From Candidatus Iainarchaeum sp. (lineage in GTDB: Archaea; Iainarchaeota; Iainarchaeia; Iainarchaeales; GCA-2688035): a stretch of 16,900 bases of DNA. The stretch lies in contig JAQTNI010000031.1 in the NCBI GenBank assembly GCA_028713935.1, forward strand, positions 1-16,900, in the 5' to 3' direction. Each line of letters starts with the position of its first letter. Position 1 is the stretch's first letter. The notes beneath the pieces are model-generated. The model did not search any database and had not been told where the DNA came from. It saw nothing but the letters and a program-made list of their open reading frames with translations. Shown here piece after piece: positions 1-14,503 of this stretch. The position numbers and the translations under genes are program-made.

Positions 1-661
1 CTTCTCCGAACTCGGTTTCCTTGAATTTTTTGTGCCCAATTCCTCGCGTCAAAAGCTCTTGCATTAAACCTTTTTTCAGCTTGCGTGCTTGCTCAATAAC
101 CTCGTCGGTTTGTTGGATAGCAGAATCAATACAAAACAAAACAGATGCAATATGTGATTGTTCAATCAACGGAGGAGTTGAAATTTTAACTGTTTTTAAT
201 AATTTCATGTTCAGGCCATTTCTTCCTTCTGCTCCTGATAAATTTCTTAACTCAGAATACCTCGATTGCAAATTATAGTAAAGATATTCTGGGACTATTT
301 TATGTTCATTTGGAATTATCCCAACTATAGATTGGTTGCAGGTTGTACTAATTCCCAAAATTCCAACTGTGCCCCTTGTTTTCCCCTGGCCATTCAATGC
401 AATAACAATTGTTTTTTTAGGCAATAATATTGTGTTCGAATTTTGCATTCCTTTTTCTGAAATAAATCCTGTCGTTCTAATAATTAACCCTTGGTGTACG
501 TCCCCTGAAGTCATCCAAGGAATATCTCCGTCCCAGTAATCTTTTACTTTGGTGCTTGGAGTGCTTCCAGTTTTTAAATTTCCAGCATCAGTTAAATCTA
601 AAATGCCCCAATCTTTTGGTATTTTTCCAGATTCAGTTTGTTTGAACTTTTGTTTGAGCAT
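1..661 (-). CDS. hsdS: Type I restriction-modification specificity subunit HsdS (N-terminal part; 3' end lies beyond the left window edge)
   Basis: Absent from the ORF track because it has no in-window stop. The reverse strand from ATG 661-659 is open for 220 codons to position 1: MLKQKFKQTESGKIPKDWGILDLTDAGNLKTGSTPSTKVKDYWDGDIPWMTSGDV...IALNGQGKTRGTVGIL...KISTPPLIEQSHIASVLFCIDSAIQQTDEVIEQARKLKKGLMQELLTRGIGH. This is a target-recognition domain followed by the conserved PPLxEQ...helical spacer typical of HsdS. The start overlaps the upstream gene by 29 nt. Confidence 0.85.
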   Translation of the reverse strand, partial: MLKQKFKQTESGKIPKDWGILDLTDAGNLKTGSTPSTKVKDYWDGDIPWMTSGDVHQGLIIRTTGFISEKGMQNSNTILLPKKTIVIALNGQGKTRGTVGILGISTTCNQSIVGIIPNEHKIVPEYLYYNLQSRYSELRNLSGAEGRNGLNMKLLKTVKISTPPLIEQSHIASVLFCIDSAIQQTDEVIEQARKLKKGLMQELLTRGIGHKKFKETEFGE

Positions 662-1634
662 ACTTTCCCTCAATATTATCAATAATTGCTTTCCCTTGAG
701 TCAAAACTTCTTCATAAGTCATAATCTTAATGTGAGATAATTGGTAGTTCCACTTTCTGATTTTTTTTACTGCTTCGGGTGTTGCATCGTTTCCAATGAT
801 AACAATTCCACGTGGTCGAAGCTCGTTAATTCCTTCTTCATCAGCTATTACTGTGCTATGTGCAGCGGCGATTGCTGATTCCATATAATTAATTAGCTGG
901 TCGACTGCTTGGATAACTTTAGCAGATACGCTTCCATCGGAATTAGTTATTTCATCAGAGATTAATTTTATTTCAACGATATCATTAGTTTTATTATACC
1001 GTTCAAGGTAAAAATCAAATTTGCTGTATGCTCCCCTTAATTTTTGCGGCTCGGCCGTGATATATTCAAGCCCAAAAAGCCAGGAATGCGCATAAAGAAA
1101 CTCTTGTAAATCAGCTTCTGATATTTTTTTTACTTTAACATTTTTAATTTTAGTATCTAATTCTTCAACATCGTTTTTAAAGTCTGGAAGTCGAGTTTTA
1201 CTCAATTCGATTATTTTTTCAGCAACTTTTTTAAGCGCATCGTCACGTTGTTGCTCTACATCCTTTTGGCGAATTTGATAATTTTCAATTAGCTGCTGTT
1301 TTTCATGGAGCTCCATCTGAAGCTGTTGAACCTCGTCTTCAATGGTTGGTTTCCAACCGACAACTTTGGCTATCTTTTTAAGGAAAAAAAGGACTGACTC
1401 TAGATGTGCCAAAGTGTGGAGATTAAAACCATAATTTTTAAACCACTTAGAACCGCCACGCCTAGGTTTTTTGGAGTCGGATAAAAAACGGACAAATTCT
1501 TCGCCAGTTTTTTTATTTTTTGCCGCAAAGATTTTTCCTGAACGATTTTTTTCAGAATAGACTGTTTCTTCTGCTAGCGATTCATAGGGCTCCCCGAGTT
1601 TCATGTCGTGCGCAGGAGTCTTTTCATCAGTCAT
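633..1634 (-). CDS. Shedu-like (DUF4263-type) PD-(D/E)xK nuclease with an unclassified basic plus coiled-coil N-terminal region, embedded in the type I R-M operon
   Basis: 333-aa ORF. The C-terminal half reads EFLYAHSWLFGLEY...KFDFYLERYNKTNDIVEIKL (ExK at 966-974)...QAVDQLINYM...RPRGIVIIGND...KWNYQLSHIKIMTYEEVL. That gives a D..ExK..Q arrangement plus the terminal hhhhG..N..h.hhTY(D/E)xhL signature I associate with DUF4263/SduA. It overlaps the hsdM stop by 8 nt and the hsdS start by 29 nt. Confidence 0.6.
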   Translation of the reverse strand: MTDEKTPAHDMKLGEPYESLAEETVYSEKNRSGKIFAAKNKKTGEEFVRFLSDSKKPRRGGSKWFKNYGFNLHTLAHLESVLFFLKKIAKVVGWKPTIEDEVQQLQMELHEKQQLIENYQIRQKDVEQQRDDALKKVAEKIIELSKTRLPDFKNDVEELDTKIKNVKVKKISEADLQEFLYAHSWLFGLEYITAEPQKLRGAYSKFDFYLERYNKTNDIVEIKLISDEITNSDGSVSAKVIQAVDQLINYMESAIAAAHSTVIADEEGINELRPRGIVIIGNDATPEAVKKIRKWNYQLSHIKIMTYEEVLTQGKAIIDNIEGKYAQTKVQTN

Positions 1635-3318
1635 AATACCCTAACTCCTTTAAGTATTTTTCCAGTTCTTTTTCAGTTTCGTTTCTTTTTAGTTCATTTG
1701 ATCTTAGTTTTAAGTATGCTTCCTTCACATTGATTTTTTCTTCCTGTTCTGTAATGTCAACGTAGCGCGTGACATTTAGATTGTAATCGTTTTCTCCAAT
1801 TTCTTTGAGTGTTGCAACTTTTGCGTATTTTTCAATGTCTTTGAATTCGTCAAAAGCATTCCAAATTTTTTCGAGGTCTGAATCTCTCAAAAAGTTCTGA
1901 GCTTTGCCCTCTTCGAAATCGTTGGCTGCATAAATGAACAAGATTTTGCCTTTGCGCTTGGCTTCCTTTGCACGATTAATAATCAAAATGCAACCTGGTG
2001 AGGGGGTATTGTAGAAAAGGTTTGCTGGCAATGAAATTACTGCTTCAATAAAATCTTTTTCCAAGAATTTTTGTCTAATTGTGCCTTCTTGCCCTCCACG
2101 GAACAACACCCCATTATCAAGTACAATTCCGAGTTGGCCATTATCTTTTAGTGTTGCAAACATGTGTTGAATCCAAGCCCAATCCGCAGTTTTTTGTGGA
2201 GGCAAGCCAAAGGAAAAGCGGCCATATGGGTCTCCTTTGACTAGTTCATCTCTGCCCCATTCATTCTGATTCCACATTGGGTTGGCGATTACTCGATCAA
2301 AGAGCATTAGTTGTCTGTCTTCAAGCAATTTTGGCGTCAGTAATGTGTCGCCTTTTTCTATTCTGGCGTCAAGTACGCCGTGCAATAACAGGTTCATTTT
2401 GCAGATTGCCCAAGTATTAAGGTTTTTTTCTTGGCCATAAAGTGAAATGTTCTGCGGGTTTTTCTTGTGCTCTCGTAAATACCGCACTATTTCAATCAGC
2501 ATTCCGGCGCTGCCCAGGCATGGGTCACAAGCTCGCATTCCCTCTTCCGGTTTGAGCAAGTGAGCAATTAATTGCACCACCTTTTGGGGGGTGTAGAATT
2601 CTCCGCCTTTTTTCCCTGCATCATCAGCAAATTGTTTAATCAAATATTCGTAAGCCCGGCCAAGCAAGTCTGGTTCGGAAAGGTCGGAGTTTCGCAGGCG
2701 ATACGCGCTGAAGTGTAAAATAAGTTTTGATAAAACGCGGTCTGGCAGGCGGTCTTTGTTGTTGAAATCAGTAACTCCTAATACCCCTTCAAGTAAGGGG
2801 TTTTGTTCTTCCAGTGCTTCGTTAGCTTTGTTTATTGCTGCACCAATGTCGCTGGTTGTTTTGCGCAGCTCTTCCCAGCGTGCGCGCGGCGGAACAAAAA
2901 ATTGGTGTTCATCTGGGTCTTCCCAGGCAGCTTTTTTGTTGCCCATTTCTTTTTCGATTTTTTCAGCTTCTTCTTCAAACACATCATTTAAGCGTTTGAG
3001 AAAAAGCATTCCAAAAATGTAATTTTTATAATCTGAAGAATCAATGCTACCGCGCAAAATGTCTGCGGCTTTCCAGAGGTGAGTTTCAAGCTCTTGTTGG
3101 GTTAATTTGGAAGTTGCTTTTTCTTTCGGGATAAATAGGTTTTGACCGCCAACTTTTTGAAGCTCGACGATACCCTCTTCTTTGAGTTCTTGCAAGTACT
3201 TTTCTGCAGTATTCCAAGAAATTCCTATTTTTTTGGCAATCTCTTCAGGGGTTATTGGTTTTTCATGTTTTTTGATTAAATCCAAAATAGCTGCCTTTCT
3301 AATATCTGCCTTTGCCAT
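1627..3318 (-). CDS. hsdM: Type I R-M N6-adenine DNA methyltransferase HsdM with an extra N-terminal winged-HTH domain
   Basis: The track ORF begins at TTG 3327; the first ATG is at 3318 (MAKADIRK...). It has the HsdM N-terminal helix LWKAADILRGSIDSSDYKNYIFGMLFLKRLND and AdoMet motif I RACDPCLGSAGML. Catalytic motif IV appears as NPMW (VIANPMWNQ, 2272-2283). The first ~75 aa, ILDLIKKHEKPITPEEIAKKIGISWNTAEKYLQELKEEGIVE, look like a wHTH. Confidence 0.9.
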   Translation of the reverse strand: MAKADIRKAAILDLIKKHEKPITPEEIAKKIGISWNTAEKYLQELKEEGIVELQKVGGQNLFIPKEKATSKLTQQELETHLWKAADILRGSIDSSDYKNYIFGMLFLKRLNDVFEEEAEKIEKEMGNKKAAWEDPDEHQFFVPPRARWEELRKTTSDIGAAINKANEALEEQNPLLEGVLGVTDFNNKDRLPDRVLSKLILHFSAYRLRNSDLSEPDLLGRAYEYLIKQFADDAGKKGGEFYTPQKVVQLIAHLLKPEEGMRACDPCLGSAGMLIEIVRYLREHKKNPQNISLYGQEKNLNTWAICKMNLLLHGVLDARIEKGDTLLTPKLLEDRQLMLFDRVIANPMWNQNEWGRDELVKGDPYGRFSFGLPPQKTADWAWIQHMFATLKDNGQLGIVLDNGVLFRGGQEGTIRQKFLEKDFIEAVISLPANLFYNTPSPGCILIINRAKEAKRKGKILFIYAANDFEEGKAQNFLRDSDLEKIWNAFDEFKDIEKYAKVATLKEIGENDYNLNVTRYVDITEQEEKINVKEAYLKLRSNELKRNETEKELEKYLKELGYYD

Positions 3319-3351
3319 AAGAATCAATAAACATATTATGGAGCGTCATAG

Positions 3352-3366
3352 TTTTTAAATATATAC
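3352..3366 (-). promoter_or_regulatory. Candidate TATA/BRE box for the hsdM operon
   Basis: The minus strand reads GTATATATTTAAAAA, centred ~41 nt upstream of ATG 3318. This is compatible with a short leader. Confidence 0.3.
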
Positions 3367-3472: not shown

Positions 3473-3508
3473 ATGCGGCTGAGTGAAGTAGTTATATACA
3501 GAGAATGT

Positions 3509-4021
3509 ATGGATGAGCGGGTTTTGAGGTTTCGGGAGTTATTCCAAGGGTTAGTGCCGAATTTTGGTTTGTTGCATGCAAAGGCGTGCGTTGCTTTGTT
3601 GTCTGGGGGGATTAAGACTGCAAAAGAATTGTCTCAAGAGACTTTGATTTCTCATAACAAGATTTATTCTGTTTTAAAGGATTTGGCGCGTGAAAAAATT
3701 GTTTTTTGCACTAATGCTGACCCAGTGACTTTTTACATTAAGGATTTTCCAAAGATTTATGAGAAGCTTGTGAATAGGAAGATTTGTTTTTTGCAGAAGC
3801 TTCCGGAAGAATTGGACAAAATGCTCAGCAATGAAAACGAGGCCCTGGAAGAGAAAGAGTATTTGATAAAAGTTTCTGAAAAACAAACACGGTTGTTTGA
3901 TAATAAAAACAAGGTTTTGGTCAAAGAACCCTTGGAAGTAAAGCAAGTGTTAAAGCAATTGAATATTTATATTGAAAAACTCGAACCAAAAAAAGAATAC
4001 ACATACGCGATTTATCATTAG
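3509..4021 (+). CDS. TrmB-like winged-HTH transcriptional regulator (short form: HTH plus coiled coil, no effector domain)
   Basis: FGLLHAKACVALLSGGIKTAKELSQETLISHNKIYSVLKDLAREKIVF matches the TrmB/archaeal wHTH pattern (LGL..EakvY..Ll..g..ta.ela...gi.r..vY.vL..L...G.v). The track ORF starts at 3473; I prefer ATG 3509 because of the TATA position. Either start is possible. Confidence 0.55.
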   Translation: MDERVLRFRELFQGLVPNFGLLHAKACVALLSGGIKTAKELSQETLISHNKIYSVLKDLAREKIVFCTNADPVTFYIKDFPKIYEKLVNRKICFLQKLPEELDKMLSNENEALEEKEYLIKVSEKQTRLFDNKNKVLVKEPLEVKQVLKQLNIYIEKLEPKKEYTYAIYH

Positions 4022-5094: not shown

Positions 5095-5850
5095 ATGGAT
5101 TGGGTTCTTGCCATTGATAAAATCAAAATGGGACTTAGCAGGAAGCATTTGGTTACTATTTTTGGCTCCTGCGAAGTTGATTACGTTGGCAGAGCCACTA
5201 GCAAGCTTTCCAAGGGTAAAAGACTTGTCTTAATCAAGGGGGATAATTCTATTAGCATTCACCAAAATAGGCTAGTCAGGCCCACAAATTACATGATGAA
5301 CACAAGCATAACAATAGAATCGACAAAACAGGGGGCTGTTTTAACTGCAAAGCGGCTTAATCCGAGAGAAATTATTACTGTAATGTTTGACAAAATTGAT
5401 GATGTTCAATCATATGAAATGGAAATCAGCGACGACCTAAGGCTAAGCGGTTCTGAAAGAGATTTGAATGACATTTTAATGGAAGACTTGTCTATGATAG
5501 AACCAGGATTAAAGCCAATTAACCAGCAGGAGCATTTCAGAAAAGGAATAGCGGACATTATTGCAGAAGACAAACACGGCCACTTGGTGGTTATAGAGCT
5601 AAAGCGTAGGCAAGCTGACTATGCGAGCGTAACCCAATTGCAAAGGTATATGCAAGAAGTTCAATCAATCAAAAACTGCAAAGCAAGAGGTATACTATTG
5701 GCTCCAAGCATAAGAAAAAATGCCTTAGAATTATTAGAAAAAAATGGTTTGGAATTCGCAAAAATAGATTTTGAATTAAAGCCCTCAAGCAAAGAAAAAG
5801 CGCACATCAAAGGGTTACAGAAGAAGCAGCAAACCTTGGACAAATTCTAG
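5095..5850 (+). CDS. nucS: Endonuclease NucS / EndoMS (mismatch-specific PD-(D/E)xK endonuclease), full length
   Basis: The N-terminal domain reads CEVDYVGRATSKLSKGKRLVLIKGDNSISIHQNRLVRP. The C-terminal nuclease reads GIADIIAEDKHGHLVVIELKRRQADYASVTQLQRY. The C-terminal tail GLQKKQQTLDKF (QQTLDKF at 5827-5847) resembles the PCNA-interacting tail of archaeal NucS. Confidence 0.9.
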   Translation: MDWVLAIDKIKMGLSRKHLVTIFGSCEVDYVGRATSKLSKGKRLVLIKGDNSISIHQNRLVRPTNYMMNTSITIESTKQGAVLTAKRLNPREIITVMFDKIDDVQSYEMEISDDLRLSGSERDLNDILMEDLSMIEPGLKPINQQEHFRKGIADIIAEDKHGHLVVIELKRRQADYASVTQLQRYMQEVQSIKNCKARGILLAPSIRKNALELLEKNGLEFAKIDFELKPSSKEKAHIKGLQKKQQTLDKF

Positions 5851-5953: not shown

Positions 5954-6568
5954 ATGATTAAGGGGGATTCTTCTTTTGCAATTCACCAGAACAGGCTTTT
6001 GAGGCCTGCTAATTACATGATGAATGCATCTGTTTCAAATGAAATCGAGGGAAACACTCTTGTGATTACTGCGCGCAAGGCAAAGCCGAGGGAAATAATA
6101 AAGGCTGTTTTTTATTGCATTGATGACGTAAGGGCATATGAAATGGACTCAGTTTCCGACATAAGACTTTTTGGCTCTGAAAAAGAGTTAAGCGATGAGT
6201 TGATGCAGGACCTTGGCTTTCTTGAAAAAGGCTTAAAACCCCTGAACCAGGAAGAAGTGCTGCGCAAAGGCCTTGTTGATATTCTCGCAGAGGATTCAAA
6301 AGGCAGGCTTGTTGTAATTGAACTGAAACGCAGGCAGGCAGATTTTAATGCTGTGCAGCAATTGAAGCGTTACATGGACCAGGTCAAAAATCTCAAGGGG
6401 ATAGAAACAAGGGGGATTTTGATTGCCCCGGATATAAGGAAAAACGCGCATGAGCTTCTTGAAAAATACGGGCTTGAATTTTTCCACCTTGATTTTGAAA
6501 TAGGCAATCCCAAAGCAAAAATAAAGGGACTGCAGAAAAAACAGCAGACAATTGACAAATTTTGTTAA
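5954..6568 (+). CDS. Second NucS/EndoMS paralog, 5'-truncated relative to the family (possible pseudogene or N-terminally shortened isoform)
   Basis: About 60% aa identity by eye to the upstream NucS. Catalytic residues are retained (VDILAEDSKGRLVVIELKRRQADFNAVQQLKRY) along with the tail GLQKKQQTIDKFC. In-frame homology continues upstream of ATG 5954 to about 5882 (YYFKCYVEYWGRAASKLPKGKRLL), but that stretch back to the in-frame stop at 5777-5779 contains no ATG/GTG/TTG. Confidence 0.75.
   Translation: MIKGDSSFAIHQNRLLRPANYMMNASVSNEIEGNTLVITARKAKPREIIKAVFYCIDDVRAYEMDSVSDIRLFGSEKELSDELMQDLGFLEKGLKPLNQEEVLRKGLVDILAEDSKGRLVVIELKRRQADFNAVQQLKRYMDQVKNLKGIETRGILIAPDIRKNAHELLEKYGLEFFHLDFEIGNPKAKIKGLQKKQQTIDKFC
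6518..6562 (+). repeat. Left copy of a direct repeat: the nucS-2 3' end encoding KIKGLQKKQQTIDKF
   Basis: It shares an exact 18-mer CAGAAAAAACAGCAGACA (6533-6550) and flanking similarity with 8532-8579. Confidence 0.6.
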
Positions 6569-13859: not shown

Positions 13860-14401
13860 TCAAGGCACAAAGACAGCCGCCGCAATCACTGTTACCCAGT
13901 CATCGCCTTTTGTTCCAATGCTGGATTGCGTGCAATTGTAGGTTTTCACTATTTTGCCATTGATTTTGAAATACTGCTCTTTTTCCTTCCATTCAACTGC
14001 ATTCGGAGCTTCTATTCCTAAAATGCTTGAAAGCATGCTTGCAGCCAGGTCTTCAGCATAATCCCCCGCAGTTTGCTCTGTCTGGCCAAAGCAATGGTGC
14101 TCAGAAATATATCCGTGCTGGTTTTTGTCTGCAGGCTCTGCCATTCCAATTGCCGCAGCCATAAGCCTGTTCGGCTCATTGCTTTCGTTCCTGCTCATTA
14201 CGCAGAAAACAACCTGCCCAGGATTCAGGTGTTCAAGGCCGCTTTTCTTGCTTCAATCTGGCAGCCTGGCGGAAGAATGCTTGAAACAGAAACAAGGTTG
14301 AATTTTTCAATTCCCGCATCGCGCAAAGCCATTTCAAAGCTCATGAGTTTTTCCTTGTGGACACCAACGCCATTAGTGAAAAAAACTTTTTTTGGAACCA
14401 T
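13860..14401 (-). pseudogene. pdaD: Pyruvoyl-dependent arginine decarboxylase PdaD, split by a -1 frameshift (or a 1-nt homopolymer assembly error) near 14243-14246
   Basis: Two adjacent minus-strand ORFs are involved. The first reads [58 protein letters not shown], with the VSS|I self-cleavage motif. The second, in frame -1, reads ([18 protein letters not shown])MSRNESNEPNRLMAAAIGMAEPADKNQHGYISEHH...VTVIAAAVFVP. Adding one A to the AAAA run at 14243-14246 yields a continuous ~180-aa PdaD (..[23 protein letters not shown]..). Confidence 0.75.
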
Positions 14402-14503
14402 TGTATTCAATTGCAGCACCTCGTTCAAAATTACAAAATTTTTTTTAAAATAAAACAATAAATAAGTGGAAATAGTATAAAAACATTTCTGAAAAACTTT
14501 TTT

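Follow-up and report, generated by a model that had tools for sequence, protein, structure and literature searches.

Why does a nuclease gene of the Shedu family lie inside a type I restriction–modification (R-M) operon, and does its product work on its own or as a part of that system? The question was raised by sduA, a gene located between hsdM and hsdS on contig JAQTNI010000031.1 of Candidatus Iainarchaeum sp. (GenBank assembly GCA_028713935.1). The window analysed here is the entire 16,900-bp contig of this metagenome-assembled genome (MAG) of a DPANN archaeon. The gene encodes a Type 1 Shedu nuclease, and genes of its lineage have entered this slot more than once, in type I operons that are unrelated to each other. 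We consider it fairly probable that SduA is a Shedu nuclease that works autonomously, keeps itself inhibited and, through co-expression with the type I system, adds a second layer of defence. This assessment rests on its family membership and intact active site, on the behaviour of characterised Shedu enzymes, and on the third of the family that occurs without hsd genes.

The open reading frame (ORF) of sduA (633..1634, minus strand; ATG start, 333 amino acids (aa), from the ORF list and its translation) overlapped both neighbouring genes. The stop codon TGA of hsdM (1629-1627) was located inside the sduA start ATGACTGA, giving an overlap of 8 nucleotides (nt; 1627-1634), and the stop codon of sduA (635-633) was preceded by the hsdS ATG at 661, giving an overlap of 29 nt. 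Both overlaps, and the resulting M-X-S order with overlapping reading frames, had been described in an earlier note made from the sequence alone, and they were present as described there. The hsdM ORF extended over 1627..3327 (minus strand), with the ATG at 3318 as the likely true start (hsdM, 1627..3318). Its product is a type I methyltransferase that carries a winged-helix extension at the N-terminus. It matched N6_Mtase (1.4e-105), HsdM_N (4e-32) and HTH_24 (3.5e-8) in Pfam, scored 247.6 bits against a cut-off of 242.75 on the NCBIfam model TIGR00497 (hsdM), and matched the PADLOC model MTase_I. Of hsdS (1..661, minus strand), which runs off the left edge of the window, only the 5' part was present, cut by the contig end. 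The encoded HsdS fragment matched Methylase_S (Pfam, 7.1e-27) and Specificity_I (PADLOC, 2.7e-50). The start at 661 was supported by the HsdS N-terminus MLKQKFKQTESGKIPKDWG, since it is conserved in the HsdS of the closest relative (MGKQNYKQTEVGEIPKDWG). With hsdM and hsdS both present on one strand, the locus was assigned as a type I R-M operon.

Shine-Dalgarno-like motifs with a presumed function in initiation were read from the sequence before both downstream genes: AAGGAG (1645..1650, minus strand), 10 nt before the sduA ATG and within the hsdM coding sequence, and GAGGG (667..671, minus strand), 5 nt before the hsdS ATG and within the sduA coding sequence. An A/T-rich, TATA-like stretch GTATATATTTA (3356..3366, minus strand), approximately 40 nt before the hsdM ATG, was a candidate archaeal promoter of the operon. 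T-runs within the operon were uninformative given the GC content of the genome (36–41%). From this layout, sduA is predicted to be co-transcribed with hsdM and hsdS and is probably also translationally coupled with them. The overlapping frames and the fixed hsdM/hsdS position would favour stoichiometric co-synthesis, as might suit a guarded effector resembling PrrC: SduA would be bound and silenced by the HsdM2-HsdS complex (M2S), or by R2M2S, and freed or activated once the R-M enzyme is disabled by an anti-restriction protein of a virus, as a backup to the failed first line. PrrC/EcoprrI provides the precedent for such an arrangement (Payne et al. 2024).

SduA was identical to the NCBI protein MDD5163582.1, which is labelled ‘DUF4263 domain-containing protein [Candidatus ainarchaeum sp.]’. 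Its C-terminal domain (residues 172-325; 660..1121, minus strand) was assigned as a DUF4263/PD-(D/E)xK nuclease domain based on profile, fold and motifs. Residues 172-310 matched the Pfam family SduA_C (PF14082) with an E-value of 1.5e-13 and a score of 51.7 bits, above the gathering cut-off of 27, covering profile positions 3-158 of 159, and nine PADLOC models of SduA matched as well (best 3.7e-17). The Shedu nuclease that the earlier note had called from the letters alone was thereby confirmed. Homology to PrrC or RloC (ABC-ATPase plus anticodon nuclease) was found with neither Pfam, NCBIfam nor PADLOC; only SduA models matched. An AlphaFold2 (AF2) model based on 29 homologs had a predicted local distance difference test (pLDDT) score of 80.7, and the top five Foldseek matches of SduA in the PDB were chains of the Shedu protein of Bacillus cereus (8ti8/8ti9; E 4.5e-4 to 1.7e-3, prob 1.0). 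Searches against PDB sequences with SduA as a single sequence (phmmer) returned coiled-coil noise only, and the full-length family profile returned coiled-coil matches only. Shedu structures were reached solely with a profile of the C-terminal domain that had been broadened by adding distant family members (8ti8_A, E 8.2e-6; the Escherichia coli Shedu effector 8ps4, E 1.3e-3).

In the alignment of hidden Markov models (HMM), motifs I-IV of B. cereus Shedu (E204, D249, E264/K266 and Q295, numbered after Gu et al. 2023; the 8ti8_A chain numbering in the alignment is offset by +2) fell onto E173, D207, E221/K223 and Q246 of SduA. The corresponding codons, read from the sequence on the minus strand, are 1118-1116 (E173), 1016-1014 (D207), 974-972 (E221), 968-966 (K223) and 899-897 (Q246). 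All five residues were invariant in the 29 homologs (41–72% identity), including the four (D207, E221, K223 and Q246) that had been proposed earlier as a D..ExK..Q core. Since the catalytic motifs are intact and invariant across these homologs, the enzyme is very probably active. The homolog alignment contained 49 invariant columns, all catalytic residues among them, and it points to clear purifying selection on SduA.

The family of SduA comprised 76 clusters at 90% identity, all of 330–350 aa and with the same architecture. These relatives were 42–72% identical to SduA over the full length, and sduA is therefore not a chance ORF. The hosts were DPANN archaea (Aenigmatarchaeota, Nanoarchaeia, Pacearchaeota and Nanohaloarchaea), one MAG labelled Methanosarcinales, and bacteria of the candidate phyla radiation (CPR; Woesebacteria). 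Some relatives were labelled ‘Shedu anti-phage system protein SduA domain-containing protein’ by NCBI. No relative of SduA was found on viral contigs. Gene neighbourhoods were read at approximately 27 distinct homologous loci, and 17 of them were inside type I operons (the window, L001, L007-L011, L013, L015-L017, L020, L034, L036-L038 and L040), with sduA nearly always just upstream of hsdS. The linkage to hsd genes that had been expected for homologs was thus conserved. The usual order was hsdM - sduA - hsdS - (variable gene) - hsdR - YgjP-like peptidase, with frames that often overlapped or abutted; in the closest relatives, sduA was followed by hsdS, a small ORF, hsdR and the gene of the YgjP-like peptidase. 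At three further loci, sduA followed other modification or restriction genes, namely an N6_N4 methylase with NmeDI_C (L003), DndB (L035) and a type III mod-res pair (L028). The remaining loci formed one clade, which is probably bacterial. About one third of the family was without hsd genes. In this lineage, approximately 63% of the loci were embedded in type I operons; for Shedu genes overall, the share located in R-M systems of any type is approximately 11% (Gu et al. 2023).

In pairwise comparisons, the identity of SduA did not correlate with that of the flanking HsdM (Spearman rho 0.10, p 0.37). In the loci L008, L011 and L020, the SduA proteins were 71–80% identical, while the identities of HsdM, HsdR and HsdS were 25–29%, 24–30% and 24–28%, respectively. 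The DNA of these three loci was 72–79% identical from approximately 20 nt inside the sduA ORF to its stop, and this similarity was absent from the flanks. sduA was located directly upstream of hsdS in two of the three, with one gene between them in L008, and L020 differed in its gene order (R-x-sduA-S-x-x-M). As the identities were uncorrelated and the similarity was limited to the sduA ORF, sduA was transferred between unrelated type I operons on its own, as a single-gene cassette. Such transfer into the same slot occurred repeatedly, and the linkage to hsd genes is not due to vertical inheritance only. In a neighbour-joining tree, the embedded state was found on all deep branches, with two departures. 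Joint travel of sduA and hsdS was considered as well and was rejected, given the HsdS identities of 24–28% at the loci with the closely related SduA.

The slot between hsdM and hsdS of related operons also contained unrelated cargo: a CD-NTase and Cap15 pair of the CBASS type (L017:6929-8390), a YhcG/DUF1016 PD-(D/E)xK nuclease (L010, 2392-3438) and a DUF3800 gene (L040, 5922-6563). Together with cassette borders that coincide with the ORF and one disrupted copy of sduA (L013), this diversity would agree with sduA being a selfish or neutral passenger at a junction that is no more than a permissive site for insertion and expression. We regard this as very improbable. In the loci read, the borders of the cassette had neither a transposase, an integrase nor a repeat; the 49 invariant columns with all catalytic residues speak of purifying selection, and this lineage is embedded in type I operons more often than Shedu genes in general are in any R-M system.

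The transfers also bear on a guarded effector of the PrrC kind. Its favour lies in the repeated recapture of the cassette beside hsdS in type I families of ≤30% identity and in the embedded state that spans deep branches of the family tree. However, SduA proteins of 71–80% identity would then need to recognise HsdM/HsdS partners of only 24–29% identity. Because nearly identical cassettes serve HsdM/HsdS partners that are <30% identical, a specific interface between SduA and HsdM/HsdS is argued against. Moreover, family members exist without any hsd genes, inhibition in known Shedu enzymes comes from the N-terminal domains of the same protein and requires no partner, and the same slot is used by unrelated cargo. 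Silencing of SduA by the R-M complex is, in our judgement, unlikely.

Upstream of the nuclease domain, the AF2 model contained an N-terminal domain (residues 17-92; 1359..1586, minus strand), presumed to be a sensor or to bind nucleic acids, and a helical linker (residues 101-167; 1134..1334, minus strand). The basic module and the helical, heptad-like segment that the earlier note had read from the translation were thus real in a confident AlphaFold model. Modelled alone, the N-terminal domain (pLDDT 94.7) consisted of four antiparallel strands and one helix (E8-18, E22-31, E37-49, E52-59 and H66-82), i.e. the order was β4-α. The domain was strongly basic, with a net charge of approximately +9 over residues 28-72, and contained two invariant aromatic residues, F36 and W64. 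It had no Pfam match, its profile found nothing below an E-value of 0.69 among PDB sequences, and Foldseek returned no match below an E-value of 0.1 (best 0.17 in the PDB and 0.11 in the BFVD). With no known family matched by sequence or structure, its description as an unclassified domain stood. The additional suggestion that it was faintly PC4-like was without significant structural support, as the PC4 homologue of phage T5 (4bg7) ranked 28th with an E-value of 0.53 and a template modelling (TM) score of 0.31 in Foldseek; we neither accept nor reject this assignment. The sPC4/Whirly fold, by which Type 1A Shedu (with B. cereus Shedu among its members) is defined, has β-β-β-β-α as its repeat unit; monomer comparisons fail for this fold, so that dimers were used instead (Gu et al. 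2023). The strand-helix order of the N-terminal domain fits the Type 1A unit, without a significant fold match of the monomer. Among 1.84 billion representative proteins searched with a profile, the domain occurred in just nine clusters, and every full-length one was fused to SduA_C. The N-terminal domain is specific to the SduA family. The linker consisted of two long helices (H101-147 and H149-167) of coiled-coil-like composition, with weak matches to coiled-coil families in Pfam, and occupied the same position as the linker domain in B. cereus Shedu.

SduA is built from three parts, i.e. the family-specific basic β4-α domain, the long helical linker and the C-terminal DUF4263 PD-(D/E)xK domain, and we hypothesize that it would form a homo-oligomeric nuclease kept inactive by its N-terminal domain and its linker. 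The nuclease may be switched on when the N-terminal domain meets a nucleic-acid feature of an invader, for example DNA ends or single-stranded DNA. By its embedding, sduA would gain the expression and the inheritance of the R-M operon. Cooperation between the type I system and SduA is plausible, because type I cleavage makes linear ends of the kind that Shedu enzymes attack.

Such cooperation could also be the reason for the co-location. SduA would then act after HsdR, and independently of M2S, on DNA ends or single-stranded tails by nicking or degrading the fragments. On purely inferential grounds, it would replace a missing RecBCD-like clearance in the tiny genomes of DPANN archaea, and its location would reflect dependence on restriction. 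The SduA of E. coli attaches to free ends of DNA and introduces nicks at a set distance from them (Loeff et al. 2023), and B. cereus Shedu was proposed to sense single-stranded ends (Gu et al. 2023). The conserved aromatic residues F36 and W64 in the basic sheet, and the family members that adjoin N6_N4 MTase-NmeDI_C, DndB or type III mod/res genes in place of hsd genes, would agree with this role, but a CPR-like clade with LexA and a partner of approximately 295 aa has no restriction gene nearby. A dedicated clearance partner of the type I enzyme appears rather doubtful to us.

Three observations were counted for the autonomy of SduA: the diverse cargo in the hsdM|hsdS slot, the one third of the family without hsd genes, and the disrupted copy of sduA in the otherwise intact operon of L013. 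Several points weigh against an autonomous nuclease. Strict, repeated placement beside hsdS, in type I families that are unrelated, goes beyond the usual clustering in defence islands in its specificity and could reflect a direct functional dependence on M2S. The N-terminal domain had no significant structural relative in the PDB or BFVD, so its ligand is a guess. Additionally, hsdR is outside the window, as the contig ends in hsdS, and the complete R-M system is deduced from relatives only; hsdR was located downstream of hsdS in every related locus of enough length (L001, L008-L011, L016, L017, L034 and L036-L040).

That sduA was captured beside hsdS again and again favours a functional tie of some kind. 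In its strongest form, this lineage would be Shedu turned into a dedicated accessory subunit or an obligate partner of type I R-M, with an N-terminal domain that reads the state of M2S/R2M2S or the DNA products. The signals could be translocation that has stalled, ends left by cleavage, or the inhibition that anti-restriction proteins cause. This would explain why type I families without a close relationship recaptured the cassette right beside hsdS. We rate such a conversion as unlikely and prefer a self-regulated SduA that shares the expression of the operon.

The embedding of Shedu inside type I R-M operons, Shedu in DPANN archaea and the embedding of defence genes in general are already known, and the novelty implied by the earlier note was too high. 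Shedu genes were reported within clusters of type I-IV R-M and of BREX; of 5,499 Shedu genes, 602 (11%) were encoded in an R-M system of one type or another, among them type I, and 11 Shedu proteins came from DPANN archaea (Gu et al. 2023, with Figure S8E therein). The R-M-embedded Shedu were proposed to complement R-M (Gu et al. 2023). Defence genes embedded in type I R-M operons were described as a general phenomenon (‘guilt by embedding’), with PrrC as the paradigm (Payne et al. 2024). The locus studied here represents the same phenomenon as the R-M-encoded Shedu of Gu et al. 2023, i.e. a DUF4263 gene inside an R-M cluster. While that survey gave counts only, one lineage was traced here, with the hsdM|hsdS slot occupied in most loci and cassette exchange among families of ≤30% identity. 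In the portion of Supplemental Table S3 of Gu et al. 2023 that could be searched, the family's accessions MDD5163582, MBI5347170 and MBN1168984 were absent. To our knowledge, the family-specific N-terminal domain, the near-fixed position between hsdM and hsdS and the cassette exchange are modest additions to Gu et al. 2023 and Payne et al. 2024.

Shedu is known to have diverse N-terminal sensors and is divided into Type 1 and Type 2. In the Shedu of B. cereus, the N-terminal domain and the linker inhibit the nuclease, and expression of the single gene protects against phage (Gu et al. 2023). SduA and B. cereus B4264 Shedu (8ti8/8ti9, Type 1A) had a common layout of a β-rich N-terminal domain, a helical linker and a DUF4263 nuclease, and the four motifs aligned. 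The two proteins could be distinguished by an identity of only 13–18% in structural alignments, by an N-terminal domain without detectable sequence similarity or significant fold similarity to sPC4/Whirly, and by a linker of two long helices here compared with four short helices there. Unlike the stand-alone gene of B. cereus, the gene studied here is part of the type I operon of a DPANN archaeon. SduA of E. coli (8ps4/8ps5), which senses DNA ends and provides the best-characterised Shedu trigger (Loeff et al. 2023), shared the DUF4263 core and, in having a long N-terminal region, the Type I/Type 1 architecture. Its N-terminal clamp domains were unrelated in sequence, and the E. coli gene is stand-alone.

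Among nested effectors, PrrC/EcoprrI and TgvAB (Vibrio cholerae VPI-2) are likewise second-line effectors located among hsd genes and co-expressed with them (Payne et al. 2024). PrrC is an ABC-ATPase anticodon nuclease that cuts tRNA and is silenced by the R-M complex, whereas SduA is a predicted DNA nuclease of a self-regulated family. KELShedu of E. coli (Sci Adv 2025, PMC12577705) also combines a DUF4263 nuclease with a separately encoded partner; the partner is KELA, a protein binding double-stranded DNA, and not an R-M system, and no gene resembling KELA was present in the window. With SduA, the Shedu family gains an archaeal (DPANN) lineage whose N-terminal domain had not been described before. 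Its locus offers a natural case for deciding whether the embedding of defence genes in R-M operons is a matter of convenience or of functional need. If a coupling were true, PrrC, the sole well-understood guarded effector in a type I operon, would be extended to a DNA nuclease family; if there is no coupling, the locus would be a further ordinary instance of defence-gene nesting.

Additional features were observed at the homologous loci. In a Pacearchaeota MAG (L013:1561-2516), sduA was interrupted near an A7 run, which left two ORFs, and part of the linker was lost, while hsdM, hsdS and hsdR were otherwise intact; the copy is either a pseudogene or an assembly error. Three of the non-hsd loci, probably of the CPR clade (L021:4557-7852, L024:273-3095 and L029:4601-7507), had the order LexA - small ORF(s) - sduA - protein of approximately 295 aa. 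The last proteins were 48–54% identical to each other and without a Pfam match, and these LexA-associated loci may represent an SOS-linked two-gene variant of Shedu. A neighbour of approximately 280–296 aa as a general partner of SduA was rejected, as only three of 12 such proteins (L021, L024 and L029) were homologous. In a locus from Woesebacteria (L005:5621-6799), sduA overlapped an upstream ORF of 392 aa, which had no Pfam match, by 11 nt, and the same island contained a Type ISP/MmeI-like enzyme, UvrD, DUF2779 and Hypoth_Ymh.

A second variable slot was located between hsdS and hsdR (L001:10188-10475, L036:9273-9557, L010:6439-6750, L038:9173-10927, L037:9245-10849 and L009:6677-7711). 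In L001, it contained a conserved ORF of approximately 95 aa without a Pfam match, which was related to the ORF of L010 by phmmer, and L036 had an ORF of 94 aa in the same position. Elsewhere, this slot contained unannotated proteins of 330–344 aa or 534 aa, or an AAA_15/AAA_21 ATPase of 584 aa. The gene of the YgjP-like metallopeptidase followed hsdR in 11 of 14 loci of enough length and was not called in L008, L017 and L020.

In the window itself, the N-terminal winged helix-turn-helix (HTH) of HsdM comprised approximately 60 aa (3140-3318, minus strand; HTH_24 3.5e-8, HTH_11 5.6e-8), which is unusual in HsdM. It was retained in the 84%-identical HsdM of L001 and L036, and N-terminal extensions were also present on other DPANN HsdM proteins (L009, L011 and L017; 588–590 aa). 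The winged HTH may be a fused controller or autoregulator. A gene for a TrmB-family regulator (3473-4021, plus strand) was divergent from the hsdM promoter region. At 5095-5850 and 5954-6568 (both plus strand), two NucS/EndoMS paralogues (NucS_N plus NucS_C) were encoded in tandem, the second with a shortened N-terminal domain; EndoMS is the nearest structural relative of the Shedu nuclease fold outside Shedu (Gu et al. 2023). Such archaeal-type genes (NucS, pyruvoyl-dependent arginine decarboxylase and TrmB), like the NCBI label of the SduA protein, agreed with the archaeal host that had been proposed from the letters. The pyruvoyl-dependent arginine decarboxylase gene was present in two ORFs (13860-14198 and 14225-14458, both minus strand), which covered positions 1-54 and 68-161 of the Pfam profile, and the split could be due to a frameshift, an in-frame stop, an assembly error or a pseudogene.

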